Assembly: GCA_038087875.1 (NCBI GenBank)
Contig: CM075993.1
Span: 9,116,001-9,180,000 of the forward strand
Reading direction: 5' to 3'
DNA length: 64,000 nt
Origin: Malacoraja senta
Lineage: Eukaryota
Both the position numbers and the translations under genes were made by a program. The notes below the pieces were generated by a model. The model saw only the letters and a program-made list of their open reading frames with translations, had not been told where the DNA came from and ran no database searches. Position 1 is the stretch's first letter; the number at the start of each line of letters is the position of its first letter. Positions 18,297 to 57,570 of this stretch are shown piece after piece.

Positions 18297-18768
18297 CACA
18301 TGTGACAATGGTCGCCTTCAGGATGTGCCGCTGAGAAGCCAAGGCCGGACCCTCGAGAGTCGGAGCCTCGCGAGTCGACGAAGCCCACGGCCAACGGTGC
18401 CTGGATTGGCACCATGGAAGCGTCTGGAGAGGACCCGGCGGCGATAGTAGAGAGGTCGGTGCAGCGGTCGATGATGGCGCTGACCGATGGACGAGGAGGG
18501 ACACATGGAACTGAGGACGCCGCTGCCGAGGGAAGGAACAAAGGAGGACCCGGTGTAGGGGACCGCCGTGAGGGAAGGGGATGGACAATGGAGGACCCGG
18601 CATGGGCGGACCACCATGAGGAATGGGAGGGGGGGAGAACAAATGGGGACCTGTAACTTTGTAAGCACCCGTTATGGGTGACCATTTACATATCGTGGAT
18701 ATGCAAGCAAAGAATTTCACTGTGACTTGCCACATGTGACAACAAAGTATTCAATTCAATTAAATTCA
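18297..18768 (+). mobile_element. GC-rich non-autonomous retroelement with LINE-like 3' tail
   Basis: CpG-rich body, aagaatttcactgtgac...cacatgtgacaa tail, (ttcaa)n terminal repeat. Confidence 0.6.
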
Positions 18769-19175: not shown

Positions 19176-19272
19176 CCCTCTGGGTGGAGAAATGGCAGAT
19201 GGAATTTAATTGGGCAAGCGTGAGGTGTTGCACTTTGGGAGGACAAATATTAGGGGAAATCATACTGTTAAT

Positions 19273-19914
19273 AGCATAATGAATTCTGAAATGTATAGAC
19301 ACATCCTATCTGCTCAAGTTCAAACAAATGCCTCAAAACTAATTGGCTGGCAGTTCATTCTTTGGCAAGACAATGATCCCAAACATACTGCTAAAGCAAC
19401 AAAGTTTTTTCAAAGCTAAAAAATGGTCAATTCCTGAGCGGCCAAGTCAATTACTCGATCTGAAACCAATTGAGCATGCCTTTTATATGCTGAAGAGAAA
19501 ACTGAAAGGGACTAGCCCCCAAAACAAGCATAAGCTAAAGATGGCTGCAATACAGGCCTGGCAGAGCATCACCAGAGAAGACACCCAGCAATTGGTGATG
19601 TCCATGAATCGCAGACTTCAAGCAGTCATTGCATGCAAAGGATATGCAACAAAATACTAAACATGACTACTTTCATTTACATGACATTGCTGTGTCCCAA
19701 ATATTTTTGTACCCTGAAATGGGGGGACTATGTATAAACACTGCCGTCATTTCAACATGATGAAATCAAAATGTGTAAAAATGGCCTTTATTAAAATCTG
19801 ACAATGTGCACTTGAACCACATGTGATTTTTTCTATTACAAATCTCAAATTGTGGAGTACAGAGGCAAATAAATAAATGATGGGTCTTTGTCCCAAACAT
19901 TATGGAGGGCACTG
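19273..19914 (+). mobile_element. Tc1/mariner 3' half with right TIR
   Basis: QDNDPKHTAKAT, LKPIEHAF, RRLQAVIACKGYATKY*; ends gcactg|ta; same family as 45760-48831. Confidence 0.93.
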
Positions 19915-20228: not shown

Positions 20229-20466
20229 TGCACAGTGTCACAGCTGGTAGGACTACTGCCTCAGAGCGCTAGAGATACGGGTTTGATCCTCACCTTGGGT
20301 GCTGTCTGTACGGAATTTTGTATGTTCTCCCTGTGACCATGTGGCCTTCCTGCAGGTGCTCCAGTTTCCTCCCACACCCCCAAAATGTGCAGCTTTGTAG
20401 GTTAATCAGCCTCTATAAATTGCTCCTAGTGTATAGAATGCAAAACAGGAATAACATAGAATTAGT
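20229..20466 (+). mobile_element. HE1-like SINE 5' part (3' part resumes at 22307-22388)
   Basis: SINE consensus is continuous across the L2 insertion. Confidence 0.8.
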
Positions 20467-22309
20467 TCCTCCATAGAATTAATCACCTCCATCATTTGTC
20501 CTGCCACCAGCACCAGCTTAACTGGGTCCCCTGCTAAGTACGAGGCATTTACTACATTTTTCACCAGCAAGGTAAAAAACATAAGAACAAATATTTCCCC
20601 TCCCACCCGTGACCTGGCTGTCTCATTGGTCTGCTCTTCAAAACTAGATTGTTTCCAACCCGTTACTTTACCCTCCCTTGTAAAACTGACCACCATGAAA
20701 CCTACTACCTTCCCCCTCGACACTGTCCCCTTTGCTCTCCTAAAGGACATCATTACAACAGCTGGTCCCAGCATCCTCGCCATCTTCAACAGCTCTCTGG
20801 CCACTGGCACTGTACCTACCTGCTTCAAGCATGCGGTGGTCCAGCCACTCCCGAAAAAAACTAACCTCGACCCCACCTTGCCAAGCAACTACAGATCCAT
20901 TTCTAAACTGCCTTTCCTCTCAAAAGCCCTTGAAAAGGTAATTTTAAGTCAACTTATGCCTTACCTTCACCAAAACACTATCTTGGAAACTTTCCAATCA
21001 GGTTTCAGGGCTCACCACAGCACAGAGTCTGCCTTGTTGAAGGTACACAATGACCTACTGCTCACCGTTGACTCCGGCGACTGTGCAATCCTGCTCCTTC
21101 TTGACCTCAGCGCAGCATTTGATACTGTCGACCACACCATCCTAATTGACCGTCTCCGGTATGGGGTTGGTATTGATGGCAATGCCCTGAGCTGGTTCAT
21201 CTCCTACCTCAAAGGTAGGAGTTTCTCGACTAACATAGGCAACTCTTTCTCCTCCCCAGCTAATCTCTGCTGTGGGGTTCCACAAAGTTCCATCCTTGGC
21301 CCCATTCTTTTCTCCCTGTATATGCTTCCCTTAGGCCAAGTCATTGAAAGGCACGGCATTTCCTTCCATTGCTACGCAGACGATACACAACTCTATCTCC
21401 CCCTGAAACCCAAAAAACAATCAAATCTGCTTAACCTTACCCGCTGCCTCGAGGATATAAAGTGTTGGATGGCCCAGAACTTCCTCCAACTAAACGAGAG
21501 TAAGTCTGAGGTCATCCTTCTCGGCCCCTCGGACTCAATCAAAATGATAGCAGGCAGCCTTGGAAGCCTTATCCCACTACTCAAACCTCACGTCAAAAAC
21601 CTTGCCATGATATTTGACTCAGCACTGAAATTTGACAAACAAGTCAATGCCGTGGTAAAAGCTAGCTTCTTTCAGCTTCGGACGATAGCTAAAATAAAAG
21701 CTATCGTCCACACATTTATCTCCTCCCGCCTAGATTACTGCAACTACACCGGCATCAGCCAATCTTCCCTGTCCCGCCTGCAACTGGTCCAAAACGCCGC
21801 AGCGAGACTCCTGACGGGCACCCGAAAAAGGGACATCACCCCAATCCTGGCCTCTCGCCACTGGCTCCCTGTGCGGTTCCGTATACATTTCAAGATCCTC
21901 CTCTATGTCTACAAAGCCCTCAATGGGCTTGCTCTCACCTACATTAAAAGTCTTCTCACCCACCACTCCACCTCCAGGTCCCTCAGATCGGCCGACTTGG
22001 GGTTGCTGAATATCCTGCGGTCTAGGCATAAGCTCAGGGGCGACTGCGCCTTTGCGGTTGCAGCTCCTAGACTGTGGAACAGCATCCCCCTTCCCATCAG
22101 AACTGCCCCCTCCATCGACTCCTTTAAGTCAAGACTAAAAACGTATCTATACTCCCAAGCCTTTCTTGACGTCCTCTGTGCGAGGGCTATATGTATATAT
22201 GTATGTAGTTTGTTTGTTTATATTATTCTTATAACAAATGTAAAGCACTTTGGCCAACGAGAGTTGTTTTTTAAATGTGCTATATAAATAAATGTGATTT
22301 GACTTGACT
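20467..22309 (+). mobile_element. L2-clade LINE, 5'-truncated, with long open RT frame (ORF 20626-22287)
   Basis: NYRSISKLPFLSK, QSGFRAHHSTESAL, LDLSAAFDTVDH, YADDTQLY, LQLVQNAAARLLT; aataaa plus (ttgac)n tail. Confidence 0.95.
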
Positions 22310-23855: not shown

Positions 23856-24798
23856 ACTTAACTGGTGCACCAACTTAAATGAAGAAACCCCAGGTTCTTC
23901 TCTTCAACCTGTAAGGGAAGTATGTTTCCTTGTATTGTGTCTGGTCACAGAACAGCTGCACTCTAGTGGCCTTGAGCTCCTCTCTACTAGTGAACACTAT
24001 GGGCAGAAACCCTGTGGCCACACCATCAATGGTGTGGGTGTTTGAGAAACCAACCATGTAGGATCAATGGCTACCTCTTCAATCCAATGAACCTTCCATG
24101 AGCAGGTGGTGGAGAGTTGCCTTGGCATAAAGATGTCTTGTCTTCTGCTTTGCTGCTTCTGAAATTGGCAGTGATGTTCCTCAGCCACACAGAGGTATGG
24201 TCTCCAGGAACATCTCAGAACATGGCAAGTTTCTACAGCTTCACCATGGAGCGATGTAGTTAATAAATGCATATGTCCGCAGAGCTTAGGCACAAAGTGA
24301 TGGAGTAACTCAGTGGGTCAGGCTGCATTCCCAGATAACATGGATAGGTGATGTTTCGGGTTGGGAACCTTTCTCAGACTGATTGTGGGGGGAGGGGGAG
24401 TGGGAGGAGGAGAGAATGCTAGGAGGAGCAGGACAAAGCGTGGCAGGGCAAAGGTGAACACAGATGACAGGTGTTTTTGATATGCATGTGGTTGGACATA
24501 AGACCAGAGATGAAATGAAAGGTCTGAGACAAAAGGATTGATGAGTTGCAAATTGTGAAGCCGGAGGAAGGAGGTGGGGAGAAATTAGTGTGAGTCTAGG
24601 TGGGGCACAGGGAAGTGGGGGAGAAAGGGAGCATCTGCAGTTCCTTGTTTCATCACAGAGCTTGCCAGGTTGTGCTCCTTGCCCTGTGTGTAAGGGTAGC
24701 CAAGTGGGAATGTATGGAGGTAATAACAAGGTCGCTCACAGGAATAGACATATCAACACCATTGCGATCGCTTTCTGCATTCTGTCTGCAAAATTTCT

Positions 24799-25722
24799 CC
24801 ACCGGGAGATCAAGTTGGTTAATGCGAACTGAGCAGAGGTGTTGGGCAAAGCGATCGCCAAGCCTGCACTTGGTCTCACTGATGTAGAGAAGTTGACACC
24901 CAGAACAGCGGATGCAATAGATGAGGTTGGGGTATGTGCAGGTGAACCTCTGCCTCACCTGGAAAGACTGCTTGGGTCCTTGAATGGAATCGAGGGGGGA
25001 GGTAAAGCGACAAGTGTAGATTTCCTACAGTTGCAAGGGAAAGTACCAGGGGAGGGGGTGGTTTGGGTGGGAAGGTACGAATTAACCAGGGAGTTACAGA
25101 GGGAGCGGTCTCTGCGGAAAGCCGAAAGGGGAGGAGATGGGAAGATGTGGCCAGTATTGGGATCCCGTTGGAGGTGGCGAAAATGTCGCAGGATTATCTG
25201 CTGGTAGGGTGGAAGGTGACGGCTGGTAGGGTGGAAGGTGAGGACAAGGAGGACTCTGTCCTTGTTACGAGTGGGAGGATGGGGAGTGAGAGCGGAGCTA
25301 CGCAACATCGCTTCGCCCAACACCTCCGCTCAGTTCACATTAACCAACCTGATCTCCCGGTGGCTCAGCACTTCAACTCCCCCTCCCATTCCGAATCCGA
25401 CCTCTCTGTCCTGGTCCTCCTTCATGGCCAGAGTGAGTCCCACTGCAAATTGGAGGAGCAGCACCTCATATTTCGCTTGGGTAGTTTACACCCCAGCGGT
25501 CTGAACATTGACTTCTCCCATTTCAGGTAGTCCTTGCTTTCTCCCTCCTTCCCCTCCCCTTCCCAGCTCTCCCACATCCTACTGTCTCCACCTCTTTCTT
25601 TCTTCTTCCCGCCCCCACCCCCACATCAGTCTGAAGAAGGGTCTCGACACGAAACGTCACCTATTCCTTTGCTCCATAGATGCTGCCTCACCCGCTGAGT
25701 TTCTCCAGCATTTTTGTCTACC
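24799..25722. mobile_element. Penelope-like element with internal inversion (minus 24799-25300, plus 25301-25722)
   Basis: Minus: FTCTYPNLIYCIRCSGCQLLYISETK; plus: [10 protein letters not shown]...[21 protein letters not shown] then pLTR; 22-bp tandem duplication at about 25200-25240. Confidence 0.92.
25627..25662 (+). ncRNA. Minimal hammerhead ribozyme motif in PLE pLTR
   Basis: CTGAAGA-agggtctcgacac-GAAAC-GTC. Confidence 0.65.
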
Positions 25723-26756
25723 TTCCCTATGTATCAAAATAAGCAAATACCAAAACTTCCACCTCTCATTGAAAAGTTGCAGATGATGTCCTAAATCCAA
25801 GGACAGTATAATTAATATAGTTTGTTGACCCTTCAACATCCCTTTCCCATTCTGCCCCCATCCCTTCATACTGGGAGTCTGGGGCAAAGGCAAGGACTAA
25901 TGCCTTCACAAATACTGCCTCAAGTGTGCTTCTGCATCTTGAATGTGTGAAGGGGGTCTGATGATCTTTTACATCCTGTTTTCCCTGGTGCTTTTCTTTC
26001 TATTCCAACTATAGATTATATCATACAGAATTTTGGGGGGGAAAGGTATCAAAAAAAGTCCTCAGTGAAGATGGGAACACTGTTAATCAATTGATTAAGG
26101 AAGTTGGGGAAAACCGAGATGAAAAGCCAAGAACCTTGTGCAATATCTCATGTATGGTATTCGGGTTTTTTAAGGAATGATCTATAATTAACCTAAAACA
26201 GTAGTTTTCCCGTAAGATTTTATCCAAGACTGCCTCCCAAATGTGTTTCCATTTATCACACAGTGACGGCCCTCTTGGTTCGACCTTTAACCTGTTTCTT
26301 AAACAGACTGTCAATACATATTTCTCCAGTCTGCTGAGCCAATAGTTTCTCAGTGCAAAGTACACATCCTGGGCCTAAAATGGTACCCCATAAATCTCAT
26401 GTAGATTGCTCCTAAATTAATTCAGATTCTCTATGTGTCCCTTCGTGAAGCTTGAATTCAATGGGAATTATGAATGGGCTGGGAAATAAACCCTCTAAAT
26501 CAAATCGTTGCATTAACTACTTGACAGACATACAAATCAGGATCCAAGCTTTATATGTGGCCCCTGGGGTTCCAGAGTTTGTACTTAACCTACAGAAGAC
26601 TTGAACAAATGATTTAGTAGGCCAGTGAGGGCTGTGTAGACAGAGCCCGACAGCTGATGACAAATACGGGGCGGCCGGAACGTGAAGTGTAACCAGGGAT
26701 TGCCATCTCCAGTGTGTCAGTATCTCTAAATCCAGAGTAGATCCAGCTAAATATTT

Positions 26757-27930: not shown

Positions 27931-29447
27931 TGTAGTCAAAAGTACAAATTAGCCAGTATGTCGATGTAAAAACAGATACTGAAAGTCGGAAACCAAAAAA
28001 TGCTGGAAACACTCAGCAGGTTGGGCAGCATCTGTGGAAAGAGAAACAGAGTTATCAGTTCAGGTGGATGGATGTATTTTTGATCTATCATCGTGAGGTG
28101 TGTGTGGGTGCAGACATACTTCAGAAATTGAGTCTGGTGCTCAAATGCAGTGGTGAGGGGGAGCCTCTCGAGTAACAGTGTCATCAATGGGCTGAGATGA
28201 TGAACTGCTCAGATAAGTGTAAAATATCCCGTGCACCACTTTGCACGGTATGGGGATTCTCTGAATGTTGTCTCACATTCGCTATGTTTATGTCATGTTC
28301 CCTACATCACAACAGTTTTGAACAACAAGAAACATTTTTGAAGCACTGTGGTGCTGGAAGTTGCTACATAAATCTATTTAACCAGTGGCCATTGCTGCTC
28401 AGAATGGATGGATGGACATTGGGTAAGAACTCCATTGTTGCCCGCCTCCCGTGAACCCCTTGTAATTCTAAAGCCAGGAGAAATGAAATTTCAGGTTCAT
28501 GTGCCAGAAGAATGACTGGTTGGATGAATTATACTGTTCGTGAAAACAGCGACTCAGTAAATGAGAACATTTTGAGGTTGACAGTCAAAAAATAGTGATT
28601 GGAAAACAAACTCGCAGGAAATTGGTCGTCAATCTCAGCAGGATTCATGGCCTGTGATTTGTCAATACTGATAACTGCACCCTAAAATACTAGGCACCAA
28701 TCAACTTGCTTATTAGTAGATACTTATTAAGAAGTATCAGCTACTCTACTTAGTTGATAGTAGATATCAATTATCTTCTTGATACTATTGCAGGTCCACC
28801 ACCAATTTCCAGGCAACTGGTGGTCCGGCACCTCTTTCAATCCAGACAAAATAACGAGAGCACTCTTGAAATCCCCCCCGAAAATGTGGCACCTCGGCCA
28901 ATCTCAACCTCATCGGGACTTCTGTGCTGATAGGCGGGTTAAATTTGCCCCTCGGCAGCCGGGGCTCTGAAACGCTGATCCGGCCGGAGCTAGCAGATCT
29001 GTTTGCATAGCGAGGCAGACTTTGCTGGCCAGGATCTTGGCTCCTCGGCGGCCTAGGCAGACCATTCCAATACCGTTTGATTCCTCTTGGAAGCAATGAC
29101 CTCTGTTGGTCCGGCAAAACGGCTATTCCAGAAAGGCTCTGGACCCAAGTGTGCTGGAAAATCGGTAGTGGATCTGTACCTCGTATCTTGATACTACCCA
29201 GTAGTATCAACTAGAAGGTATCCAGTTTCTGATAGTAATTGATACAAGACATGAACAACTTGCTCAGTCCCGCCGACTATTTGAGGGAATGCGTCAAATT
29301 CTCTCAGATATGTTTACATTGACATTGCCTGGATCACCGTACTTTTGAAAGGTGTTGGGTTTCCAAACACTGTGCTGCAACCAATAAATTTGAATCTCAC
29401 AAGTACCCTCATTAAAAACCACAATGAAGAACTGGGCCTGGGATATA

Positions 29448-31164
29448 CAGTGGCTTGCAAAAGTATACATACCCCTTGAACTTTTCCACATTTTGTCACG
29501 TTACAACCACAAACGTAAATGTATTTTATTGGGATTTTATGTGATAGACCAACACAAAGTGGCGCATAATTGTGAAGTGGAAGGAAAATGATACATGGTT
29601 TTCAAATTTTGCCAGGTTGTGCTCCTTGCCCTGTGTGTAAGGGTAGCCAAGTGGGAATGTATGGAGGTAATAACAAGGTCGCTCACAGGAATAGACATAT
29701 CAACACCATTGCGATCGCTTTCTGCATTCTGTCTGCAAAATTTCTCCACCGGGAGATCAAGTTGGTTAATGCGAACTGAGCAGAGGTGTTGGGCAAAGCG
29801 ATCGCCAAGCCTGCACTTGGTCTCACCGATGTAGAGAAGTTGACACCCAGAACAGCGGATGCAATAGATGAGGTTGGGGTATGTGCAGGTGAACCTCTGC
29901 CTCACCTGGAAAGACTGCTTGGGTCCTTGAATGGAATCGAGGGGGGAGGTAAAGCGACAAGTGTAGATTTCCTACAGTTGCAAGGGAAAGTACCAGGGGA
30001 GGGGGTGGTTTGGGTGGGAAGGTACGAATTAACCAGGGAGTTACAGAGGGAGCGGTCTCTGCGGAAAGCCGAAAGGGGAGGAGATGGGAAGATGTGGCCA
30101 GTATTGGGATCCCGTTGGAGGTGGCGAAAATGTCGCAGGATTATCTGCTGGTAGGGTGGAAGGTGACGGCTGGTAGGGTGGAAGGTGAGGACAAGGAGGA
30201 CTCTGTCCTTGTTACGAGTGGGAGGATGGGGAGTGAGAGCGGAGCTACGCAACATCGCTTCGCCCAACACCTCCGCTCAGTTCACATTAACCAACCTGAT
30301 CTCCCGGTGGCTCAGCACTTCAACTCCCCCTCCCATTCCGAATCCGACCTCTCTGTCCTGGTCCTCCTTCATGGCCAGAGTGAGTCCCACTGCAAATTGG
30401 AGGAGCAGCACCTCATATTTCGCTTGGGTATTGAAAACTAACACTGCACATCACCCTGAACACACTATCCCCACTGTGAAACATGGTGGTGGCAGCATCA
30501 TGCTGTGGGGATGCTTTTCTTCATCAGGGACAGGGAAGCTGGTCAGAGTTGATGGGAAGATGGATGGAGCCAAATACAGGGCAATCTTGGAAGAAAACCT
30601 GTTAGAGTCTGCAAAAGACTTGAGACTGGGGCGGAGGTTCACCTTCCAGCAGGGCAACGACCCTAAACATACAGCCAGAGCTACAATGGAATGGTTTAGA
30701 TCAAAGCATATTCATGTGTTAGAATGGCCCAGTCAAAGTCCAGACCTAAATCCAATTGAGAATCTCTGGCAAGACTTGAAAATTGCTGTTCATAGATGCT
30801 CTCCATCCAATCTGACTGAGCTTGAGTTATTTTGCAAAGAAGAATGGGCAGAAATTTCAGTCTCTAGATGTGCAAAGCTGGTAGAGACATACCCCAAAAG
30901 ACTTGCAGCTGTAATTGCAGCGAAAGGAGGTTCTACAAAGTATTGACTCAGGGGGGCTGAATACTTTTGCACGCCACACTTTTCAGTTTTTTATTTGTAA
31001 AAAAATTTGAAAACCATGTATCATTTTCCTTCCACTTCACAATTATGCACCACTTTGTGTTGGTCTATCACATAAAATCCCAATCAAATACATTTACGTT
31101 TGTGGTTGTAACGTGACAAAATGTGGAAAAGTTCAAGGGGTATGAAAACTTTTGCAAGCCACTG
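29448..31164 (+). mobile_element. Tc1/mariner (IR/DR type) element carrying captured 820-bp genomic segment
   Basis: TA|cagtggcttgcaaaag ... cttttgcaagccactg|TA; about 163-bp TIR match; transposase C-terminal part 30433-30946 ([32 protein letters not shown]). Confidence 0.95.
29611..30430 (+). repeat. Near-identical direct copy of 24664-25483
   Basis: Same length (820 bp); one difference seen (24880 T vs 29827 C). Confidence 0.95.
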
Positions 31165-32329
31165 TATATACTGGTTCTTACCGTTTCTGCCAAGGCTCAA
31201 CATCCCAGGAAATACTGCATCCTCTCCATAGCAGGGAAAGTAAAGTCTGTCACGTTTCCAAACTGCTCTAATTGGATGTGACAGTCTCCAGACAAAAATG
31301 CAGAAAAATAATCAGATCCAAATTAGGAGAATGCTGGCAAAGGAGGCTTTCCTTGTCAGGGATTGTGTGCAGGAAAGATTTGTGACAACTCCAGAATTCC
31401 TCCTTTCTTTGCAAAAGAAACATGTAGATTCTGTCCAGTTTCAGTTCCTGGAAACTTAATTTCCTCCTTTAATTTTTGAATTGTCCAGTCGGCTGTGACA
31501 GTTCACAGAGCTTTCATGTGACGTTTACTTTGAGGTTTACTTTATCTTAGCTGCTTACATAGTTTCTCGCTTCTCGATTGCAAGTAATGGGAAAGCCTCT
31601 GGCACGCTCATATGCTCCTTGTTCAACCATAGTTGGTCACCTGACTTAATGGTACTAAGATACATCCAGTTACAAATTGTATTGGTCCACTACTGATGGC
31701 CCACGGTTCATCATGCACGCCAAAGTTCTCTGCCGCTAGATCTGTCCTCAATCTGTCATATTTAGAACAATGCTGGTGTGACACAAACATCATCTTCACA
31801 AGGACTGTTGTAGTCCTTCCTACCATTACTGTTGCTCTTCCAATAGGCAGAGGGATGAGGACAGGATCCGGCAGGTTTATCCCTTATGGTGTTGAAACCA
31901 GGAACTGCAGATGGTGGTTTATAGAAAAAGACACAAACAGCTGGAGTAACTCAGCGGATCAGGCAGCATCTCAGGAGAATATGGAATATGGAAAGGTGAT
32001 TTCTTTAGACTGAAGAAGGGACCCGACCCCAAAAGTCACCTATCCATGTTCTCCAGAGATGCTGACCGACCTACTGAGATACTCCAGCACTTTGTGTCCT
32101 TTTTTTAATCCCTCATGGTGATTTGATTGCGACCTGCTGTACATCCATTCTATGTCAGAAGCATGTGTAAGAAAGAACTGCTTTCTTACACACTTTCTTA
32201 CAAGGTTTAAATTGAAGGTGGACACAAAATGCTGGAGTAACTCAGCGGGTGGGGCAGCATCTCTGGAGAGAAGGAATGGATGACATTTCGGGTCGAGACC
32301 CTTCTTCAGACTGATGTCAGGGGAGGGGA

Positions 32330-40270: not shown

Positions 40271-40387
40271 TCGGAACTTGCTGTATATGCATCGTATAAA
40301 CTTAAATTTACATTTTTTACCAAAGCCAATTAACCTACAAACCTGTACATCTTTCGGTAGTACATAGTTCGGGATGAATTAGCTTAA

Positions 40388-40923
40388 AGGGGCTGTCCCA
40401 CTGCGACGACCTAATTGGCGAGTTTAGGAGAGTTTGAAAAAGTGTCACGTTGAAGACCTCCTTCGACTATGTTGAAGACCTCCTTCGACTATGTTGAAGA
40501 CTAGCTTCGACTAGCTTCGGGAAAATTGGACACCGAATAGTGGAGAGTGAAGACGACCTCCTTCAATCTCCCTTTGACTATGTTGAAGACTATGTACGAC
40601 TACCTTCGACTACCCTCGATTACCTACGAATAACATGCCGACCTACTTTGGAATACCTAATACCTACTTTGACCAAACCTACGAGTTAAAAAAATATCGA
40701 TTTTTTTTTTCCATGGCGACCTTTATTTACTCGCGGGCATTTGTCAGCGTGTTGAAAAATACGCCGCGACCTAGCTGATGCCTCGAGTACGCGGGGACTA
40801 CTCTCGAGCATGAAGGAGAGTTACAAAGACCTCCTAGGACCTTGTGTTGGCCATGCTGCGAGTATGAGTCGAGGGCAAACTCTTCTAAACTCGCCAATTA
40901 GGTCGCCGCAGTGGTACAGCCCC
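40388..40923. mobile_element. PIF/Harbinger-like MITE
   Basis: taa|aggggctgtcccactgcgacgacctaattggcgagtttag ... ctaaactcgccaattaggtcgccgcagtggtacagcccc; internal (gacctccttcgactatgttgaa) repeats; right TSD absent. Confidence 0.85.
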
Positions 40924-43888
40924 AAACGTGGAACAGAATTAGAGACAGTTACTGTGGAGCAGACTCACTTGGCTCCATTGTCAACTTGCTTCTGGTTGGT
41001 AAAGAGAAATAAGGAACTGCAGATGCTTGTTTTGGAAAAAATGCTGGAGTAACTGTATACCGAAAGATGTACAGGTTTGTAGGTTAATTGGCTTTGGTTA
41101 AAAATGTAAATTTAAGTTTATACGATGCATACACAAAAAGAGGAACTTGCTGTATATGCATAATATTAACTTACATTTACATTTTGTACCAAAGCCAATT
41201 AACCTACAAACCTGTACATCCTTCGGTAGTACATAGTTCGGGATGAATTAGCTTCAGTGTGCATAATGCACACCAGAAACAAAAGCCTACCATAGGCAAA
41301 ACATAAAGATTACATTTTGCCTATATATGTAGAAGGAATTTTACTCCTAAAGCTGCAGAGGGGCCATAGCTTAGGGATACAAGCAGTAAAAACGATTTGT
41401 TATTTTTACGATTAGACGGAAGTGAATGAGTCAAGAGAGGTAAAACTGGTGTTCAAAATTATCAATGATTTTCCAGTGTACATAAGGAGAAACTGTTTCC
41501 ACTGACATGTAGATTAGACAGAGAGAATATAGACTAAGAAAACTTTTCAATAAAATTTGCCATCAACCACACACTCCTCCCACTGGGACTGTCTCTCCAC
41601 TGTCCCCATCCATCCACCCACCCACCTCCTTTATTTGGTTCCATGGATCACCTTCTATCCCTCAGACTGAAGAAGGGTCTCGACCCGAAACATCGGCAAT
41701 TCCTTCTCACCAAAGATACTGCCTCACCCGCTGAGTTTCTCCAGCATTTTTTGTTTACCTTCGATTTTTCCAGCATCTGCAGTTCTTTCTTGAACAAAGC
41801 TTCCCTTCCTATCAGATTCCATCACCTGCAGCCCTTTGTTGCCTCCACTTATCACATCCCAACCCCTCTCTCTTTTGCCACCCTCCCTCCCTCCCCCACC
41901 TGACTCCAACTACCAATCAACCCCCCCCCCTCAACTGGATCCACCTCTCTCCTGCCAGCTCTTGCCCCAACAACCCTCCCCCCCCCCCGCACTTACCCCT
42001 TTATCCTGGCTGTCACCCCTCTACTCTTCCAGTTTCAGATGAAGCTTCCCAACCTGTAACATCGACTGTCCATTTTCCTCTGCAGAAGCTGGCTGAACCG
42101 CTGAGCAGCTCCAGCAGTTTGTTTGTGCTCCCTGCTCCAGCATCTCCAATACTGGTAGAAGCGGATTTAATTGCATCATTCAAAAAGGTATTGGGTAAAA
42201 ATTGAAAAGGAAAGGTATTCACGGATGCAGAGAAAGAGGAAGTGGGATGGTCTGGAATGGTTTTTCCAGGTCCCAGCGCTGGTGAGGGAGGAGGAGGAGG
42301 AATTCCAAGTTTATTTTTATTGCTTAATGGTTTCCGCATGAGTCATCAGGTAATAGGTTATGGCAGAGGACTGTCTGAATAAACCCTATCTGCCACAGTT
42401 ACTGCATTCACCGCAGTCATCTCTGGTTTACTGTTCCTAGAGGTAGGGAGGCTTGGTGACTTTCAGTGAACGCAGAGATGAGAGTGAACAGTAAACCAGA
42501 GATTACACGCCTGTGTCCATCACTGTGTCTGCAAGCTCATTTAGTTAACCTATTATTCCAATGTCGCTTATGTTTCTTAGAACATTACAATCTCGAAGAA
42601 CAAAGTGTATGGCATGTGAGACTATGATCATGTTTTTGGTCTTGTGCGTAAGCCAAGAGCTACAAATAATAAATACTTTTAAATTCAAAGCACTGCCGAA
42701 GATATGTTGCAAAATATTAAACCAGACCCACGCTAACTTCCTTTCCATCACACTTCCAGACATGTTCCAAATAACATTCATTCCAACCAGTCCATGGAAT
42801 TAGATCGCATCGCAACAATACAGACCATCTGCTGTAGCATGTCAGAAAGAAATTGTGCGGTTACCAGCCTGTGGTTTGTTGTATAAAGAGATAAGTTGAC
42901 CGTAAAGTATATAAATATGAAAGGTGTATTAGTAAATGTGACATACTTGTCTCATCAGTGTAAACTGTCTGAACTAGGTTAATCTAGACGGACCACTTTA
43001 CCAACTACAATATAAAAAAGAAATGAAAGAATATTTGTATAATTTGGCTTCCTTCATACTTGTGGTTAGACTGACTTACCAAACTGGGCATGCAGCACTC
43101 AAATTCAATTGCCCCATAACACTGAGAACAGTTCAGTGATGAATGTTCCCTTCTCAGCTGGGAAGATATATCCAAAGCCTGATATTTATTATTTCAACAT
43201 CAGTTCCCACTTAAGTTGTTTGCACATATGAGTCATCAATTTCCTATTTTTCCAAGGGGGTTCAAAATGAATTAAAGTTCAGTCACAGACCTACATTCTC
43301 ATGTCAGTACACAGACTACCCATATATAGTTTGGTTAATTCTGTCCATGTGTTCCTTGTTAATGGATTTTAGTACAAATTTGATATTGTGCAAAAGAAAA
43401 GTTCAATAATCTGCAAACCGTAGGATATTTGCCATTGGAATGTGACATAATCGAGAGTTCCTTTCTTCCCGCTCCTAGCTGCAAGGTTTTATCCACTTAC
43501 CAATTATCAGTTTGTCAGCGCAAATGAAGTCTCACTGATGATGTTTTATTGGATCAGTTGCTGCTTCATTTGGGGTAATTTGTTCATAGCGTGACAAGTG
43601 TAGCAGATCCAGCTGCAGTGTGTCTAGAAACTGAGATCAGATTCTTTCTGTTGTACATCCAGGTCAGTGCACTGGTCTCATCTCTGCTGTGCTTCACCAT
43701 CAGCCCAACACATCCATCCCACACACCAGCTGCTCAGTATCCTCTTTACTCTCCATGTTTATGACCAAGTCTTCCAAAGACCAGCAATTAGCTTATTTCT
43801 CTTCCTCGCCCTGCAACTGCTTCACAAGTTGTTGTACCAAAATGGACAGGGACGTAATGATGGACAAAATGGATGAGGCTGTAATAGA

Positions 43889-44408
43889 TACATAGAAAAT
43901 AGGTGCAGGAGTAGGCCATTCGGCCCTTCGAGCCTGCACCGCCATTCAATATGATCATGGCTGATCATCCAACTCAGTATCCCGTACCTGCCTTCTCTCC
44001 ATACCCCATGATCCCTTTAGCCACAAGGGCCACATCTAACTCCCTCTTAAATATAGCCAATGAACTGGCCTCAACTACCCTCTGTGGCAGAGTTCCAGAG
44101 ATTCACCACTCTCTGTGTGAAAAAGATTTTCCTCATCTCGGTCTTAAAGGATTTCCCCCTTATCCTTAAGCTGTGACCCCTTGTCCTGGACTTCCCCAAC
44201 ATCGGGAACAATCTTCCTGCATCTAGCCTGTCCAACCCCATAAGAATTTTGTACGTTTCTATAAGATCCCCTCTCAATCTCCTAAATTCTAGCGAGTATC
44301 AAGTCTATCCAGTCTTTCTTCATATGAAAGTCCTGACATCCCAGGAATCAGTCTGGTGAACCTTCTTTGCACTCCCTCTATGGCTATAATGTCCTTCCTG
44401 TCCTTCCT
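43889..44408 (-). mobile_element. Young CR1 3' fragment
   Basis: RGDLIETYKILMGLDRLDAGRLFPMLGKSRTRGHSL; near-identical to 60390-60902. Confidence 0.93.
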
Positions 44409-45759: not shown

Positions 45760-48700
45760 AGTGCTCTCCATAATATTTGGGACAAAGACCCATCATTTAT
45801 TTATTTGCCTCTGTACTCCACAATTTGAGATTTGTAATAGAAAAAAATCACATGTGGTTCAAGTGCACATTGTCAGATTTTAATAAAGGCCATTTTAATA
45901 CATTTTGATTTCACAATGTAGAAATTACAGCAGTGTTTATACATAGTTCCCCCATTTCAGGGCACTATAATATTGGGACACAGCAATGTCATGTAAATTA
46001 ATGTAGTCATGTTTAGTATTTTGTTGCATATCCTTTGCATGCAATGACTGCTTGAAGTCTGCGATTTATGGACATCACAAGTTGCTGGGGTGTCTTCTCT
46101 GGTGATCCTCTGCCAGGCCTGTATTGCAGCCATATTTAGCTAATGCTTGTTTTGGGGGCTAGTCTCCTTCAGTTTTCCCTTCACCATATAAAAGGCATGC
46201 TCAATTGGGTTCAGATCGAGTGATTGACTTGGCCACTCAAGAATCGACCATTTTTTAGCTTTGAAAAACTCCTTTGTTGCTTTAGCAGTATGTTTGGAAT
46301 CATTGTCTTGCTGTAGAATGAACCACCGGCCAATGAGTTTTGAGGCATTTGTTTGCACTTGAGCAGATAGGATGTGTCTATACACTTCAGAATTCATTAT
46401 GCTACTACCATCAGCAGATGTATCATCAATGAAGATAAGTCAGTACCTTCAGCAGTCATACATGCTCAGGCCATAACACCCCCACCACCGTGTTTCACAG
46501 AAGAGGTGGTATGCTTTGGATCTTGGGCAGTTCCTTCTCTCCTCCATACTTTGCTCTTGCCATCACTCTGATATGTTAATCTTCAACTCATCTGTGCACA
46601 AGATCTTTTTTCCAGAACTGTGATTGCTCTTTTAAGTACTTCTTGGCAAACTGTAACCCGGCCATCATATTTTTGGGCCTAACCAGTGGTTTGCATCTTG
46701 CAGTGTAGCCTCTGTATTTCTGTTCATGAAGTCTTCTGCGGACAGTGGCCATTGGCAAATCCACACCTGACTCCTGAAGAGAGTTTCTGATATGTCGGAC
46801 AGGTGTTTTTATTTATTTATTTATTATAGAGAGAATTCTTCTGTCATTAGCTGTGGAAGTCTTCCTTGGATTGCCAGTCCCTTTGCGATTAGTAAGCTCA
46901 CCAGTGCTCTCTTTCTTCTTAATGATGTTCCAAACAGTTGAAGGTAGACAAAAATGCTGGAGAAACTCAAATTGGTGAGGCAGCATCTATGGAGAGAAGG
47001 AATAGGTGAAATTTCGGGTCAAGACCCTTCTTCAGACTGATGTCGGGGGGGGGGGGTGGGTGGGAAAGGAAGAGACGGAGACAGTAGGCTTGGGGGAGCG
47101 CTGGGAAGGGGAGGGGAAGGAGGGAGAAAGCAAGGACTACCTGAAATTGGAGTAGGCGATGTTCATTCCGCTGGCGTGTAAACTACCCAAGCGAAATATG
47201 AGGTGCTGTTCCTCCAATTTGCGCTGGGCCTCACTCTGGCAATGGCGGAGTCCCAGGACAGAAAGGATGCGGAATGGGAGGGGGAGTTGAAGTGCTGAGC
47301 CACCGGGAGATCAGGTTGGTTATTTCGAACTGAGCGGAAGTGTTGGGCGAAGCGATCGCCAAGCCTTTGCTTGGTCTCTCCGATGTAGAGAAGTTGACAC
47401 CTGGAACAGCGGATGGAGTAGATGAGGTTGGACGAGGTGCAGGTGAACCTATGCCTCACCTGGAAAGACTGCTTGGGTCCTTGGATGTAGTCGAGGGTAA
47501 AGCGACAAGTGTAGCATTTCCTGCGGTACCAGGGGAGGGGGTGGTTTGGGTGGGAAGGGACACATTGACCAGGGAGTTACAGAGGGAACGGTCTCTGCGG
47601 AAAGCAGAAAGAGGAGGAGATGGGAAGATGAGGCCAGTGGTGGGATCCCGTTGGAGGGTGCGAAAATGTCGGAGGATTATATGTTGTATGCGACGATTGG
47701 TAGGGTGGAAGGTGAGGACAAGGGCGACTCTGTCCTTGTTACGAGTAGGGGGATGGGGAGTGAGAGCGGAGCTGCGGGATATAGAGGAGACCCTGGTGAG
47801 AGTCTCATCTATAATAGAAGAGGGGAACCCCTATTCCCTAGAGAATGAGGACATCTCCGATGCCCTGGTCTGGAACACCTCATTCTGGGTGCAGATGCGG
47901 TGTAGACGGAGGAATTGGGAGTAGGGGATGGAGTCCTTACAGGAAGCAGGGTGGGAAGAAGTGTAGTCCAGATAGCTATGGGAGACAGTGGGTTTGTAGT
48001 AGATGTCGGTCAGTAGTCTGTTACCTGCGATGGAGATGGTGAGGTCTAGAAACGGTAGGGATATGTGAGAAATGATCCAGGTGAATTTGAGTGTCGGATG
48101 GAAGTTAGTGGTGAAATGGATGAAGTCAGTGAGTTCTGCATGGGTGCAGGAGGTAGCGCCAATGTAGCAGAGGTAGAGTTCGGGGATAAGGCCACGGTAC
48201 GCCTCGACAAGGATTGTTCGACGTACCCTACAAAGAGGTAGGCATAGCTGGGGCCCAGGCGCTTGCCCATAGCTACGCCTTGGATTTGAAGGAAATGGGA
48301 GGAGTCAAAGGAAAAGTTGTTGAGGGTAAGAACCAGCTCCGCTTGGCGGAGGAGAGTATTAGTAGACCGGGACTGGCTGCAGTTGATTTTGGTAAACCTA
48401 AGGTTTGGCTGATCTACCTAACAGTTTTATTCGTGTTTCTCGGTCTCATAATGGCTTCTTTGACTTTCATTGGCACAACTTTAGTCCTTCAACAGCAATA
48501 AAAGTTTCCAACGGTGATGGAAAGACTGGGGGAAAGACTAGGTGCTGAGACCTCTCTTAGACCTACATTAAGGAGGCAATTGAACACACCTGAGCAATTA
48601 CAAATGCCTGTGAAGACGTGTCCCAAACATTATGGTGCGCTGAAATGGGGGGACAATGTTTAAACACGGCTGTAATTTCTACATGGTGAAACCAAAATGT

Positions 48701-48831
48701 ATAAAAATGGCCTTTAATAAAATCTGACAATGTGCACTTTAACCACATGTGATTTTTTTCTATTACAAATCTCAAATTGTGGCAAATAAATAAATGATTG
48801 GTCTTTGTTCCAAACATTATGGAGAGCACTG
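45760..48831 (-). mobile_element. Near full-length degenerate Tc1 (IR/DR) element with PLE insertion
   Basis: About 220-bp TIRs (agtgctctccataat / attatggagagcactg|ta); QQDNDSKHTAKAT, WPSQSLDLNPIEH on minus strand. Confidence 0.93.
46942..48379 (-). mobile_element. Penelope-like element (partial RT, GIY-YIG, pLTR)
   Basis: MGKRLGPSYAYLFVGYVEQSL; LIYSIRCSRCQLLYIGETKQRLGDRFAQH; 7-bp TSD cagttga at 46935-46941 and 48380-48386. Confidence 0.93.
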
Positions 48832-50994
48832 TACATTTATAGCTTTGTATAAATACTGCAAAACTAATACCATTTTAGAAAGAACAATCTGAGACTGCAT
48901 CACAAAATGTCCTCTCCGATGTACAGACCAGGGGCTGCTACAAGCATCTGACGCCACCTTGTGGAATAGTCATGGTTCTAATATCCCAGGAGTACACTCT
49001 GCAATGAAGTTCACTCCTTATCGACCACACTGACTGCACTGACTTACACCCATCCACGGGGTTCAAACACCACAGCGAACACCTGAGGCCATTTACCTGC
49101 TGATGTCACATCAAATGTGCTTATCAGAAAGCGAAATATGCTTTGTATCATCATCCCAAAGCACTTTACAACCAATGATGTGGTTTTGCAAATGTATCAG
49201 CTGCTGCAATGTAGTGAACATCGCATTAAAGTTACACACAGCAAGATCCCAGATGTCACAACAATCCAACATTTTGTGATATTGATAGGGGAATATGTGG
49301 GAACAACTCCACTGGGATTCAGAATTGTGTCATGGGATCATTTATGTTTAACTTAAAACTAACAGCACTTAGATTTTAACATCTTGGGCAGAAGATGGCT
49401 CCTCAGGCACTGCAGCACACGAACAAAACAAATTGCAGCATCTGTGGGTGGGAGTGGACAGACGATGTTTCAGGTTGGGACCCTTCAGATCGACGAGGGG
49501 TTCCATCATGAAACGCCATCTGTCGATTTCCCTCCACAGATGCTGCCTGGCCCACTGAATTCCTCCAGCACTGTTGCTTAAGGTTCCAACATCTGCAGTC
49601 TCTTGTTTCTTCATTTTATTGTAGCACTACAGTGAGTGGGTTATCCCTGATCACCAACCCTGGTGTCAGACTGGAACCCATAATCTTCAGATCAGCAGAG
49701 AAAGTCACCATCTGACTCACAACCAATATTTGACTCTTGACACGCATGAACATCACAAAGGAAAAAGTGCAATGTTCATGTTGTAACAGTTGTGTGGAAC
49801 AGCCGAGATCAGATGTAAAAGGAGAACAACTAATCCTGGATATGTTTTTGTTGTTCATGGACTACTAATGTTATGCTCTTTAAACTGTAACTAACAAGTA
49901 TTTAATATGTCAACTGAACTTACAGAGAACAAGTATAAATCATTCCTTTACAAGTCCTACTTATTGTTATATGGTGATTGGTCAGGCGACAAGGAGAGGA
50001 ACAACTATATATCTGTTGGTTTTTGAAGGAAGACAAAAACATGCTTCTCCCCATCTCAATATTATTTAATAATCCTAATTTACAAATAATAGTTTGTATA
50101 GATACTGCTGACATGACTATCGGTTCCACAACGGGTGATTATTAGCACTTATCTTTTGCACCAAGATATAATATTAGAGTCTCCAAGCTCCATTGTGTAA
50201 GGTGAGAGGAGAAAGATTTAAAGGGGACCTGAGGGGCATCTTTTTCACAAGGGAAGGTGGGTATAAGGAATGAGCTGCCGGTGGAAGTCGTAGAAGCAGG
50301 TACAATTACAACATTTAAAAAACATTTGGACAGGTTGTTGGATAGGAAAGGTTTAGAGGGATATGGGCCAAGACGAGCTTAGGTAGATACCTTGGTGGAC
50401 ATGACTTATGTGCTGCATAAGGCCACAAATGAAGGTAGATGAGTAAAACCAGACTTTATCAGTGAAGGCATTGAGTATAAGAATTGCATGTTGCAGCTTT
50501 ATAAAACTGGTGAGCCCATGTTTGGAATACAGGAAGGATATGGAGGCTTTGGAGAGGGTGCGGAAGAGGTTTACCAGAATGCTGTCTGTATTAGAGAATA
50601 ATAGCTATCAGGAGAGATTGGACAAACTTGGGTTGTTTTCTTGGGGAAGGCTGAAGGGGGAGAGGGAGGGGGAAGGGGCGTTGTTCTGGGATGCCAGAAC
50701 TAACTGTTGAGCCTTCTTGAGGTGTTGTGGACCTAACTCAACGAAACACCAGTGAAGGGAGGTGCCCACTTGATAACCCCAAAGATATACTGGCATCTAC
50801 ACAATCAGTTTTTTAAAAAGAGATTGTTAACATGTGGGTAGCTGTTTATTGCATATGTAGTTAGTTATTGTCCTTAGCATAAGTTGATATATTCACTTTA
50901 GACAGTGCTTTGGGCTTGGTTTTCTTGGTTGAGCACTTATCCTGGTGTTATAGCACAAATACTTTGTGTTTTAATTGTAGTCTATACTGTTCCA

Positions 50995-53251: not shown

Positions 53252-55301
53252 TGTTATTTTTTTACTCCCTTCTGCATTTCCATTACTCGCCTGAATTCCA
53301 ACATTATGTTTCTTGTTTAACTATACACAACTTTCTCTAAAAAACAATGTTTAATCATTTTGGACTTTTAAAAATTTTTTATTACATTATTTTATTGAAC
53401 ATGTTAAAAAAATACAAACACAAATAAACTTATAAGGAATGAAAAAGAAAATAAAACACAAAGGAAAACAAGCAAATAAGTACCTCAAATAATACAAATA
53501 ATATCGTTCATGTTCAAAAGGGGTAAGAAGAAGTTTGAGAACTTTTCTGGTCCTACCCCCTCTTATTTTCTATACATTTTCATGGAAAAACAAAATAATG
53601 GGAACAAATGGACCCAAAATCTGTTGAACAGTCCACAAACAAGAAATAACCAAACAGAAAAGAAAATCACTGGTCCGGCTCATAACCATTCAATCTTTTG
53701 TTTCTGAAGAGTGTTTTTAGTTTGAATAGTCTTACATTTTTTCAGCTCATCATGGCAGTTATTCCAGAGACTAACACCCTTTGCTGCAACACAATGGAGT
53801 TTTGCATTTAATTAATAGGCTGCTTTACTATTCTTCCTGTAGCAGGAACCTTATATCACTCCCTCTTCCATCTTTTGCCCCACCAGATTATAGCTTAATC
53901 TGTCTATAGTTATTTGCGAATACTCTATCTCACAACTTATTTTTTCTGTTATTTGTCTATCTTCCATCTGACTTGAAGCCAATACAGAGTCACGACTTCT
54001 AAGGTCTTTAATGTATACTGTAAATATTTGAAGCTGCAGCGCTCATTACACTAGTTACAGTTTGCCAACTTAAAAATTATTCATTTATCGCTGGTCATCC
54101 TTCTCTGTCAATTTACCAGCCTTCTGCTCATGGCAATGTATTATCTTCAATCCCATGAGTTCATCACCTGTGCAGTAACCTTTCACATGGCACCTTACAA
54201 TTGCCTTTCAAAAATCCAAACATACTATCTTCATTGGCTCCCCTTACCTTTCTTACCACTGACCCCACAAGAGACCTCTAGTAAATTTACTACTCAAGAT
54301 TATCCCTATCATAAAATCATGTTGACTCTGGCTAATCATTTTATGTTCGTCTTAGTTCTCTGTTATCACTTCTTTAAAAAGACCTCCGGCCTTTTCCAGA
54401 CAAATGACATTAGGTTAACTGGCCTGTGGTTTCTCTCACTCCTTTCTTGAAGACGGGTGATAAATTTGTTCTTGATCCACTGGAACATTTCCAGAATCTA
54501 ATGAATTTGTTGTCTACAAATTGGTGGCTGTGTTTCATACAACAATAAATAAACTTTCAAATAACATTCGCTATAAAAATGCTTTAATGTTTTGCAAGAT
54601 CATCAAAAAGCTTATAAGAGAGTTCTTTAAAAGATTTGGCCCATACCCCTCTAAATCATTCCAATCCAAATATATCTGCCTAAAAAATAACACAAAGTGC
54701 TGGAATAACTCAGCAGGTCAGGCAGCATTTCTGGAGGATATGCATAGGTGACATTTCGGGTCAGGACCCATCTATCCATTCCAAATGGCTTTTAAAAGCC
54801 ATTGTTATATCTGCTTCTATAGCTCTGACGCTTCAAATGCTTTATCCTGGAACAAGATTGAGAGTTGCATTTAACAGGACTGAGCTACTGCTACATCTGC
54901 CTCCACCCTGACCTCAGGATTTTGAAGTTGGTATTGGAGATCCAGTATAGAGGACATGGTCAATAGAGGAAAGAGACATTCTAAGGACCTAGTATAGTGT
55001 TGACCTCAGCTGCATGCACTTTGTTTCAATAATTCATTTACTCCACACGGAAATAAAAACAAGCCAATTTCAAGCCATAGCCATGTTGCTGCTTTGTTTC
55101 GATTGTCAATCACACCAAACGCAACTTGATAGACCCATCTATCTACGTGGTCACCTGAGATTAATTCAGCAGACGAGAATCTAATTTTTCTGTCTTTTCA
55201 CTTATTTTGTGAGTGAATTTCAAAGGAAATCCAAGCTTTCAAATAAACTGCTACTGACTTGGTTTCCATGAACTCTGATCCTGTGACATTACTTATCCAA
55301 C

Positions 55302-57570
55302 CTACTGGACCTAGGGTTGAGATTTTTGTTTGGAGAAAGGCTAACTTTGAGGAGATGCGAAAGGATTTAAAAGGAGTGAATTGGGACATGTTGTTTTATG
55401 GGAAGGATGTAGAAGAAAAATGGAGGACATTTAAGGGTGAAATTTTAAGAGTACAGAATCTTTATGTCCCTGTTCGGTTGAAAGGAAATAGTAAAAAATG
55501 GAAAGAGCCATGGTTTTCAAGGGAAATTGGACACTTGGTTCGGAAAAAGAGAGAGATCTACAATAATTATAGGCAGCATGGAGTAAATGAGGTGCTTGAG
55601 GAGTATAAAGAATGTAAAAAGAATATTAAGAAAGAAATTAGAAAAGCTAAAAGAAGATATGAGGTTGCTTTGGCAAGTAAGGTGAAAGTAAATCCAAAGG
55701 GTTTCTACAGCTATATTAATAGCAAAAGGATAACAAGGAATAAAATCGGTCCATTAGAGAGTCAGAGTGGACAGCTATCTGCAGAGCCAAAAGAGATGGG
55801 GGAGATATTGAACAATTTATTTTCTTCGGTATTCACGAAGGAGAAGGATATGGAATTATGTGAGGTAAGGGAAACGAGCAGAGTAGCAATGGAAACTGTG
55901 AGATTCAAAGAAGAGGAGGTGCGGACACTTTTGAAAAATATGAAAACGGATAAGTCTCCAGGTCCTGACAGGATATTCCCTAGGACATTGAGGGAAGTTA
56001 GTGTAGAAATAGCAGGGGCTATGACAGAAATATTTCAAATGTCATTAGAAACGGGAATAGTGCCGGAGGATTGGCGTACTGCGCATGTTGTTCCGTTGTT
56101 TAAAAAGGGTTCGAAGAGTAAACCTAGCAATTATAGACCTGTTAGTTTGACGTCAGTGGTGGGCAAATTAATGGAAAGGATACTTAAAGATAATATATAT
56201 AAGCAACTGGATAAGCAGGGTCTGATTAGGAACAGTCAACATGGATTTGTGCCTGGAAGGTCATGCTTGACTAATCTTCTTGAATTTTTCGAAGAGGTTA
56301 CTAGGGAAATTGATGAGGGTAAAGCAGTGGATGTTGTCTATATGGACTTCAGTAAGGCCTTTGACAAGGTTCCTCATGGAAGGTTGGTTAAGAAGATTCA
56401 ATTGTTGGGTATTAATGGTGGAGTAGCAAGATGGATTCAACAGTGGCTGAATGGGAGATGCCAGAGAGTAATGGTGGATGGCTGTTTGTCAGGTTGGAGG
56501 CCGGTGACTAGTGGGGTGCCTCAGGGGTCTGTGTTGGGTCCACTGTTGTTTGTCATGTACATCAATGATCTGGATGAAGGTGTGGAAAATTGGATTAGTA
56601 AGTATGCAGATGATACTAAGATAATGTTGTGGATAATGAAGTAGATTTTCAAAGTCTACAGAGAGATTTAGGCCATTTGGAAAAGTGGGCTGAAAGATGG
56701 CAGATGGAGTTTAATGCTGACAAATGTGAGGTGCTACATCTCGGCAGGACAAATCAAAATAGGACGTACACGGTAAATGGTAGCGAATTGAGGAATGCAG
56801 TTGAACAGAGGGATCTAGGAATAACTGTGCATAGTTCCCTGAAGGTGGAATCTCATGTAGATAGGGTGGTAAAGAAAGCTTTTGGTGTGCTGGCCTTTAT
56901 AAATCAGAGCATTGAATATAGAAGTTGGGATGTAATGTTAAAATTGTACAAGGCATTGGTGAGGCCAATTCTGGAGTATGGAGTACAATTTTGGTCGCCT
57001 AATTATAGGAAGGATGTCAACAAAATAGAGAGAGTACAGAGGAGATTTACTAGAATGTTGCCTGGGTTTCAGCAACTAAGTTACAGAGAAAGGTTGAACA
57101 AGTTAGGTCTTTATTCTTTGGAGCGCAGAAGGTTAAGAGGGGACTTGATAGAGGTCTTTAAAATTATGAGCGGGTTAGACAGAGTGGACGTGGATAAGCT
57201 TTTCCCATTGAGAGTAGGGAAGATTCAAACAAGGGGACATGGCTTGAGAATTAAGGGACAGAAGTTTAGGGGGAACATTAGGGGGAAGTTCTTTACTCAG
57301 AGAGTGGTAGCTGTGTGGAATGAGCTTCCAGTAGAAGTGGTGGAGGCAGGTTCGATGTTATCCTTTAAAAATAGATTGGATGGGTATATGGACGGGAAAG
57401 GAATGGAGGGTTATGGTCTGAGTGCAGGTAGATGGGACTAGGGGGAAGTATTTTATTTTTAATTTTTTTTTTTTAAATAAAAAAAATTTAAATGTTCGGC
57501 ACGGACTTGAAGGGCCGAGATGGCCTGTTTCCGTGCTGTTATGGTTATATGGTTATATGGTTATATGGTT
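55302..57570 (+). mobile_element. Young 5'-truncated CR1 LINE, ORF2 split by one frameshift just after YADD
   Basis: 461-aa and 270-aa ORFs with complete RT motifs; (ttatatgg)n tail. Confidence 0.97.

Follow-up and report, generated by a model that had tools for sequence, protein, structure and literature searches.

The window analysed here is a stretch of 64,000 nucleotides. At positions 29448-31164 it holds a Tc1 element of the Passport-like type that is bounded by TA sites, with its ends reading TA/CAGTG at 29448 and CACTG/TA at 31164. The left copy of the TA target-site duplication (29446-29447) lies within a TA run and its register is therefore ambiguous; the right copy (31165-31166) is placed by the terminus sequence and by empty sites in relatives. 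Both outer termini and both TA flanks are present, as a sequence-only reading of this DNA had reported. The right terminal inverted repeat (TIR; 30948-31164, minus strand) is complete at 217 nt and contains two direct repeats of 30 nt each, an inner one at 30948-30977 and an outer one at 31133-31162. The left TIR (29448-29610, plus strand) is a remnant of 163 of about 217 nt. It keeps the outer direct repeat (29450-29479) and stops at 29610 in a T run, ahead of the inner direct repeat, which is lost. The two arms are alike at 159 of 163 nt, with mismatches at 29465, 29467, 29527 and 29563, and they diverge past 29610, exactly where the TIR had been said to break. Both outer direct repeats carry a private change, at 29467 in the left arm (TIR position 20) and at 31147 in the right arm (TIR position 18); of 10 TIRs from relatives, almost none has the base seen there.

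The 3' half of the transposase gene (30433-30946, plus strand) is kept as an open frame that encodes residues 170-339. The gene resumes at codon 169/170 of 339, position 30433 being the third base of codon 169. The remnant carries a DDE_3 domain (Pfam, E = 1e-10). Of the catalytic Asp residues, the first has been deleted, and Gly replaces the second (codon at 30653), a position that is Asp in all 14 relatives compared. Four of the 170 residues kept are shared with none or almost none of these relatives, the Asp to Gly change among them. The remnant is 86% identical (147/170) to the plaice transposase CAB51372.1 and 89-94% identical to other relatives of 339-344 amino acids, reaching 94% with one 339-aa transposase. 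By its sequence the element belongs to the Passport group of IR/DR Tc1 elements, where the likeness to CAB51372.1 places it. In the part of Clark et al. 2009 (PMC2651795) used here, Passport, Eagle-Glan as well as Barb-SSTN-RTTN make up one group of IR/DR Tc1 elements. The element resembles the Passport group as described there in its long TIR of about 220 bp with two direct repeats, its TA target and an intact length of about 1.63 kb, and differs in that this copy is non-autonomous, with a left TIR truncated by the capture and only the C-terminal half of the transposase.

The size of the loss was estimated from three relatives, found among 80 fetched loci and about 80-85% alike. They give an intact length of 1,626-1,630 bp, one of them being whole at 1,626 bp, and by comparison the element would lack about 732 bp of its interior (732-735 bp across the three), or 45% of its length. 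The deletion took the left inner repeat and the leader, and from the transposase both the DNA-binding domain and the first catalytic Asp; replacement of the 5' half of the transposase had been proposed from the letters alone. The further description of the element as being of roughly normal length needs a small correction, since its 1,717 bp exceed the intact relatives by about 90 bp (5%).

In place of the missing interior stands a cargo of 822 bp (29609-30430, plus strand). It is a direct copy of 24662-25483 (plus strand), a donor that ends 3,964 bp before the Tc1 element, and 821 of 822 positions are identical at an offset of 4,947. The single difference is a T at 24880 in the donor against a C at 29827 in the cargo. 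The cargo and its donor form the only repeat of such quality in a self-BLAST of the window, and other Penelope-like element (PLE) copies within the window are 76-89% alike. A copy of upstream DNA (24664-25483) had already been noticed in the sequence-only reading. At the left junction the dinucleotide TT (29609-29610) fits both the donor and the TIR, the shared tt that had been noticed; homology of at least 2 nt would occur there by chance with P = 0.16, and is thus not beyond chance alone. At the right junction two extra bases (30431-30432) match neither the next bases of the donor nor intact Tc1, in line with the estimate of about two added nucleotides. The return to Tc1, earlier placed at about 30433, is fixed at exactly that position by intact copies of the family whose loose ends appear in the read sets X1 and X21 (agreement 0.96).

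The cargo is 83% Penelope-like (685 bp), and the remaining 137 of its 822 bp are non-PLE flank of the donor (29609-29745, plus strand), close to the 135 bp first suggested. This flank has no coding match and within the window occurs solely at the donor and in the cargo. When it was scored against the continuation of the PLE, its scores were equalled by 77, 158 and 261 of 300 shuffles, so it has no likeness to PLE beyond that of shuffled sequence. In tblastn the PLE protein ran on into 24743-24798, which was discounted as an over-extended alignment. An inverted PLE piece follows (29746-30249, minus strand), which covers the C-terminal part of the reverse transcriptase up to GIY-YIG and contains a private repeat at 30147-30190. 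A plus-strand piece (30254-30430) then holds the end of GIY-YIG and is cut ahead of the PLE stop codon and 3' tail. The private repeat had been described as a 22-bp duplication. It is indeed private to the donor and the cargo, but its net gain is only 9 nt against two other PLE copies of the window; it is a short copy of a downstream motif in place of about 6 nt.

The donor PLE spans 24799-25725 and has a 5' inversion, with 24799-25302 on the minus strand and 25307-25725 on the plus strand, and a 57-nt overlap that is 93% alike. This is the shape expected from twin priming. The element extends beyond the copied part (25484 to 25725) and reaches its own 3' end. Its pieces match residues 233-451 of protein P0172 at 53-58%, and the donor is itself a fragment; P0172 has RVT_1 (below cut-off) and then GIY-YIG (above cut-off) in one frame. 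The named best protein matches of the PLE are from the sharks Rhincodon typus and Chiloscyllium punctatum (7 matches in all), which makes a cartilaginous fish the likely host. A Pfam scan that took in part of 185 unmasked reading frames found no host exon in the cargo or nearby among 30 and 149 frames, a search that short exons would escape. Its matches were transposable element (TE) domains plus p47_phox_C below cut-off at 18299-18685 (minus strand); with 24.3 bits against a cut-off of 27, and in a GC-rich frame, this match was judged to be chance.

The right junction creates a Met-started frame of 191 amino acids (30371-30946), which joins 21 PLE residues read in an alternative frame to the transposase half. 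The fusion frame was absent from the protein collection searched. For its first 45 residues, none of 39 matches covers more than 76%, and the best cover the Tc1 half only. A functional fusion protein was rejected, with two catalytic Asp missing and the PLE part out of frame.

The window contains other repeats. An older Tc1-like element of another family lies at 45760-48835, with inverted ends (45760-45981 and 48618-48830) that are 88% alike and with 27-38% identity to P0005 and P0158 over longer pieces. It is interrupted from 46940 to about 48380 by a Penelope-like element that keeps its 3' end, an ordinary nested retro-insertion in contrast with the cargo capture at 29448-31164. A 3' fragment of the same family (92.6%) is found at 19266-19913. 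Two fairly well kept LINE copies are present, one with a 610-aa open frame containing a reverse transcriptase domain (20455-22287) and the other with a 465-aa reverse transcriptase frame followed by a 273-aa frame (55247-57441). A cluster of inverted and direct repeats at 40273-41254 is possibly a rearranged non-autonomous element: 41054-41233 is 85% self-complementary, 40273-40385 recurs at 41142-41254 (95%), and a 22-bp tandem repeat occupies 40449-40513. At 60836-60971, a 67-bp tandem duplication (95%) ends a repeat that is 95% like 43884-44399.

Reads from 4 of 24 public runs (X1, X19, X20 and X21) were compared with 28400-31880. In X1 (organism A) and X21 (organism G), one contig each joins 29445 to 31165, and these empty sites carry one TA fewer. 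Empty TA sites, which the sequence-only reading had proposed to look for in related species, are thus seen in two of two related organisms, and the Tc1 element therefore came in through ordinary transposition once its lineage had separated from A and G. In the four runs, neither an allele nor a relative was found to have an intact Tc1 at the 29448 site. The donor is older. Its flank and PLE start are covered by a single contig in X1, at a depth of 17.5 against about 34 for single copy, and by a single one in X21, at 52.5 against 87.5. The left junction of the donor PLE is common to organisms A and G. With a single donor contig at or below single-copy depth in each relative, the donor pre-dates the Tc1 element and is not a repeated unit in these genomes. 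Many genomic copies of the same fusion of flank and PLE would have undone the argument for a local origin; each relative has a single orthologue.

That argument is otherwise carried by the cargo itself, where the unique flank of the donor, its inversion joint and its private repeat are all found, and the claim that the cargo came from this locus is supported. Copying in the reverse direction, from cargo to donor, was rejected: in the relatives the donor is present although Tc1 is not, and the PLE at the donor continues to its 3' end.

The age of the capture can be set against that of the Tc1 copy. The flanks of the element differ from organism A at 39 of 1,027 sites (3.8%) and from organism G at 36 of 1,025 (3.5%). 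Between the two TIR arms there are 4 differences in 163 positions, and between cargo and donor there is 1 in 822 (Fisher p = 0.003). At the one cargo/donor difference, three other PLE copies have the C of the cargo, and the T of the donor represents CpG decay, so that the cargo has kept the ancestral base. Judged from these differences, the decay of the copy is likely to be about 20 times as old as the capture, a ratio with a wide margin of error, as the counts behind it are 1 and 4. The difference between 4/163 and 1/822 would therefore place the capture long after the Tc1 insertion, in place. Some of the TIR mismatches could instead come from a parent copy, which would weaken the age gap.

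The cargo is best explained by template switching in the course of repair. The donor PLE inserted first, its flank junction being seen in organisms A and G, and the Tc1 element entered a TA after the split from these organisms, whose empty sites are seen. The Tc1 copy then decayed by about 1%; the private changes in its TIRs and open reading frame are visible, and their timing is our inference. Much later, a break or a stalled fork may have arisen in the resident, ageing copy. Synthesis would have left the TIR within the T run, primed on TT at 24662, and copied 822 nt in the same orientation from a template 4.9 kb back. The end would finally have been joined to Tc1 at codon 169 with two added bases. 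That the capture took place in the resident element, whatever the origin of the break, is held with good confidence. That the break was in addition not made by the transposase is put at slightly better than even, and this form of the reading is favoured because the outer repeats are mutated, because of the age gap and because of the published balance between the two routes. What resulted is probably a relic that is present once, cannot move and has no function.

This class of event is already published with hundreds of examples. In the part of the survey by Tan et al. 2021 (PMC8277862) used here, 370 Pack-TIRs are reported from 100 animal genomes, 115 of them TcMariner and nearly all single copy. 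There, 56.9% of Pack-TIRs lie at most 15 kb from the parent, the median microhomology is 2 bp, the median gap is 4.6% of the element and breaks are skewed inwards. A direct precedent is their case 363, a zebrafish TC1DR3 element of 1,672 bp whose parent, 431 bp long, lies at a distance of 2.6 kb. In that account single-copy Pack-TIRs arise by gap filling that is independent of transposition. Like them, the present element keeps both termini around a recent copy of same-chromosome DNA from less than 5 kb away, and one of its joints has 2 bp of microhomology, the other a short insertion; unlike their median, its gap is 45%. P-element gap repair, cited in the same source, likewise captures filler DNA when induced by supplied transposase, and the likeness lies in a change of template, to DNA close by, when a break at a TIR element is being repaired.

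Measured against the Pack-TIR definition, as far as that part of the survey gives it, the element falls partly inside. At least 10 bp of one element are asked for on each side, and 163 and 732 bp are present. The internal sequence should be 100-5,000 bp, with one best parent of at least 90% identity and 80-120% of the length; here it is 822 bp, and its best parent within the window is identical at 821/822. The cargo should be non-TE, but it is 83% transposon DNA. A TE within 100 bp of the parent is also filtered against, and the donor PLE continues at 25484-25725, directly beside it; that filter is aimed at segmental duplication, an aim that is served here, as no TIR element lies beside the parent. 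The name Pack-type, given to the element earlier, therefore suits its way of working and not the definition by non-TE cargo, nor probably the filter on flanking TEs (PMC8277862).

The break may also have come from the transposase, if it excised Tc1 from one chromatid and abortive gap repair then filled the middle from the nearby donor. We regard this as possible, though clearly less likely than a break of other origin. In such abortive repair, copying would run for 163 nt at the left end and for 732 nt at the right one. A gap of 45% with one break inside the TIR is expected of this route by Tan et al., as far as the part used here goes (PMC8277862), and counts against a transposase-free break. 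The Tc1 family is also very abundant in all four runs, where its summed depth, which is not a copy number, exceeds that of the flanks by 4 to 5 orders. Excision fits less well with a copy whose decay looks about 20 times as old as the capture and with private changes in both outer binding repeats, and in the same part of the survey it is held to be the minor route (PMC8277862).

An assembly error, with an intact Tc1 at the site into which the assembler or a chimeric read inserted donor sequence, is unlikely. The 99.9% identity to nearby sequence in a repeat-rich region would favour such an error, and the cargo junctions are absent from the read contigs listed. X19 (organism F) is the best-matching run (share 0.75) and may be the assembly's own source, hence not independent. 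Its record 8 spans the left junction of Tc1 with its flank (28400-29472) and its record 15 the right one (31145-31880), each with 0 differences, and its letters agree with the private TIR changes at 29465, 29467 and 31147. The X19 contigs break within the TIRs. Those listed, from about 88% of the run read, give no cover at 29643-29707, where a contig would be expected whether the cargo is real or not. X20, with a depth of about 2.5, likewise gives no cover there. None of the contigs listed from X19 lies over either cargo junction, and X20 is too shallow for this. Assemblers join sequences on long shared anchors, unlike the short joints seen here, which consist of 2 nt of homology and 2 added nt. 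The CpG difference between donor and cargo also has the expected polarity, and the 1.7-kb element sits between unique flanks that match X19 without difference, in a window without N.

The chimera could have formed elsewhere or in transit, as in events of the FoSTeST type, or have spread onward as a small mobile family, but we think this marginally less probable still than an error of assembly. Its outer termini and TA sites are whole. Like multicopy Pack-TIRs and FoSTeST cases (Ssk-FB4, Pack-hAT-N8_XT) in the part of the survey used here, and like plant Pack-MULEs, it holds cargo between the ends of a TIR element and would owe it to a template switch at 2-bp microhomology (PMC8277862). The published multicopy cases in that part lie far from their parents, but here the donor is 4 kb off (PMC8277862). 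Also unlike them, the element has its parent adjacent, has no gene in its cargo and has no second copy or target site within the window, where one copy of the chimera is found. The absence of the fusion frame from the protein collection is weak evidence in the same direction. In the part of the Sleeping Beauty study used here (PMC5224488), the IR/DR structure is a strict requirement and pairing begins at the inner repeats. With its left inner repeat lost, the chimeric copy is therefore likely immobile. Mobilisation in trans, which the sequence-only reading had allowed for, is unlikely, given this loss and the private changes in both outer repeats.

Further still from probable is that the chimera founds or joins a young mobile family, an active Passport-like transposase of a cartilaginous fish having excised and moved the cargo copy despite the missing left inner repeat. 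If true, the IR/DR rule would have an exception in nature, and the transport of a Penelope piece by a DNA transposon would have a case that can be dated. The left junction motif had 0 matches in metagenome contigs, where host DNA is not expected, and relatives numbered 0 of 13 candidates in viral contigs, 0 of 112 in prokaryote genomes and none in plasmids.

Least probable of all is an RNA-templated origin, in which a minus-strand transcript of the inverted PLE ran into the 137-bp flank and was reverse-transcribed into Tc1 with a target deletion; read on the minus strand the cargo does give PLE and then downstream flank, like a 3' transduction, but there is neither target duplication nor tail, 732 bp are lost, the start would lie inside the antisense PLE piece, and the donor is just 4 kb away in the same orientation.

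The locus thus has the look of a real, very young and local templated insertion, accompanied by a deletion, in a Tc1 that is dead, and it shows no sign of function. As it stands, it is one more small structural variant in a dead transposon, with junk cargo, and it would matter more only given further copies or an active transposase. In the literature outside subscription journals, no paper was found that combines Penelope, Tc1 and skate or cartilaginous fish. The elephant shark, the one cartilaginous fish looked up in the table of Tan et al., has 0 cases in the part used here (PMC8277862), and the present element is probably in a cartilaginous fish. Its value is modest and lies in being very young and well ordered in time, with the donor, the empty site and both transposon ends visible. 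Because so much of the element is lost, it is also a candidate for the route triggered by excision, which is the rarer of the two.
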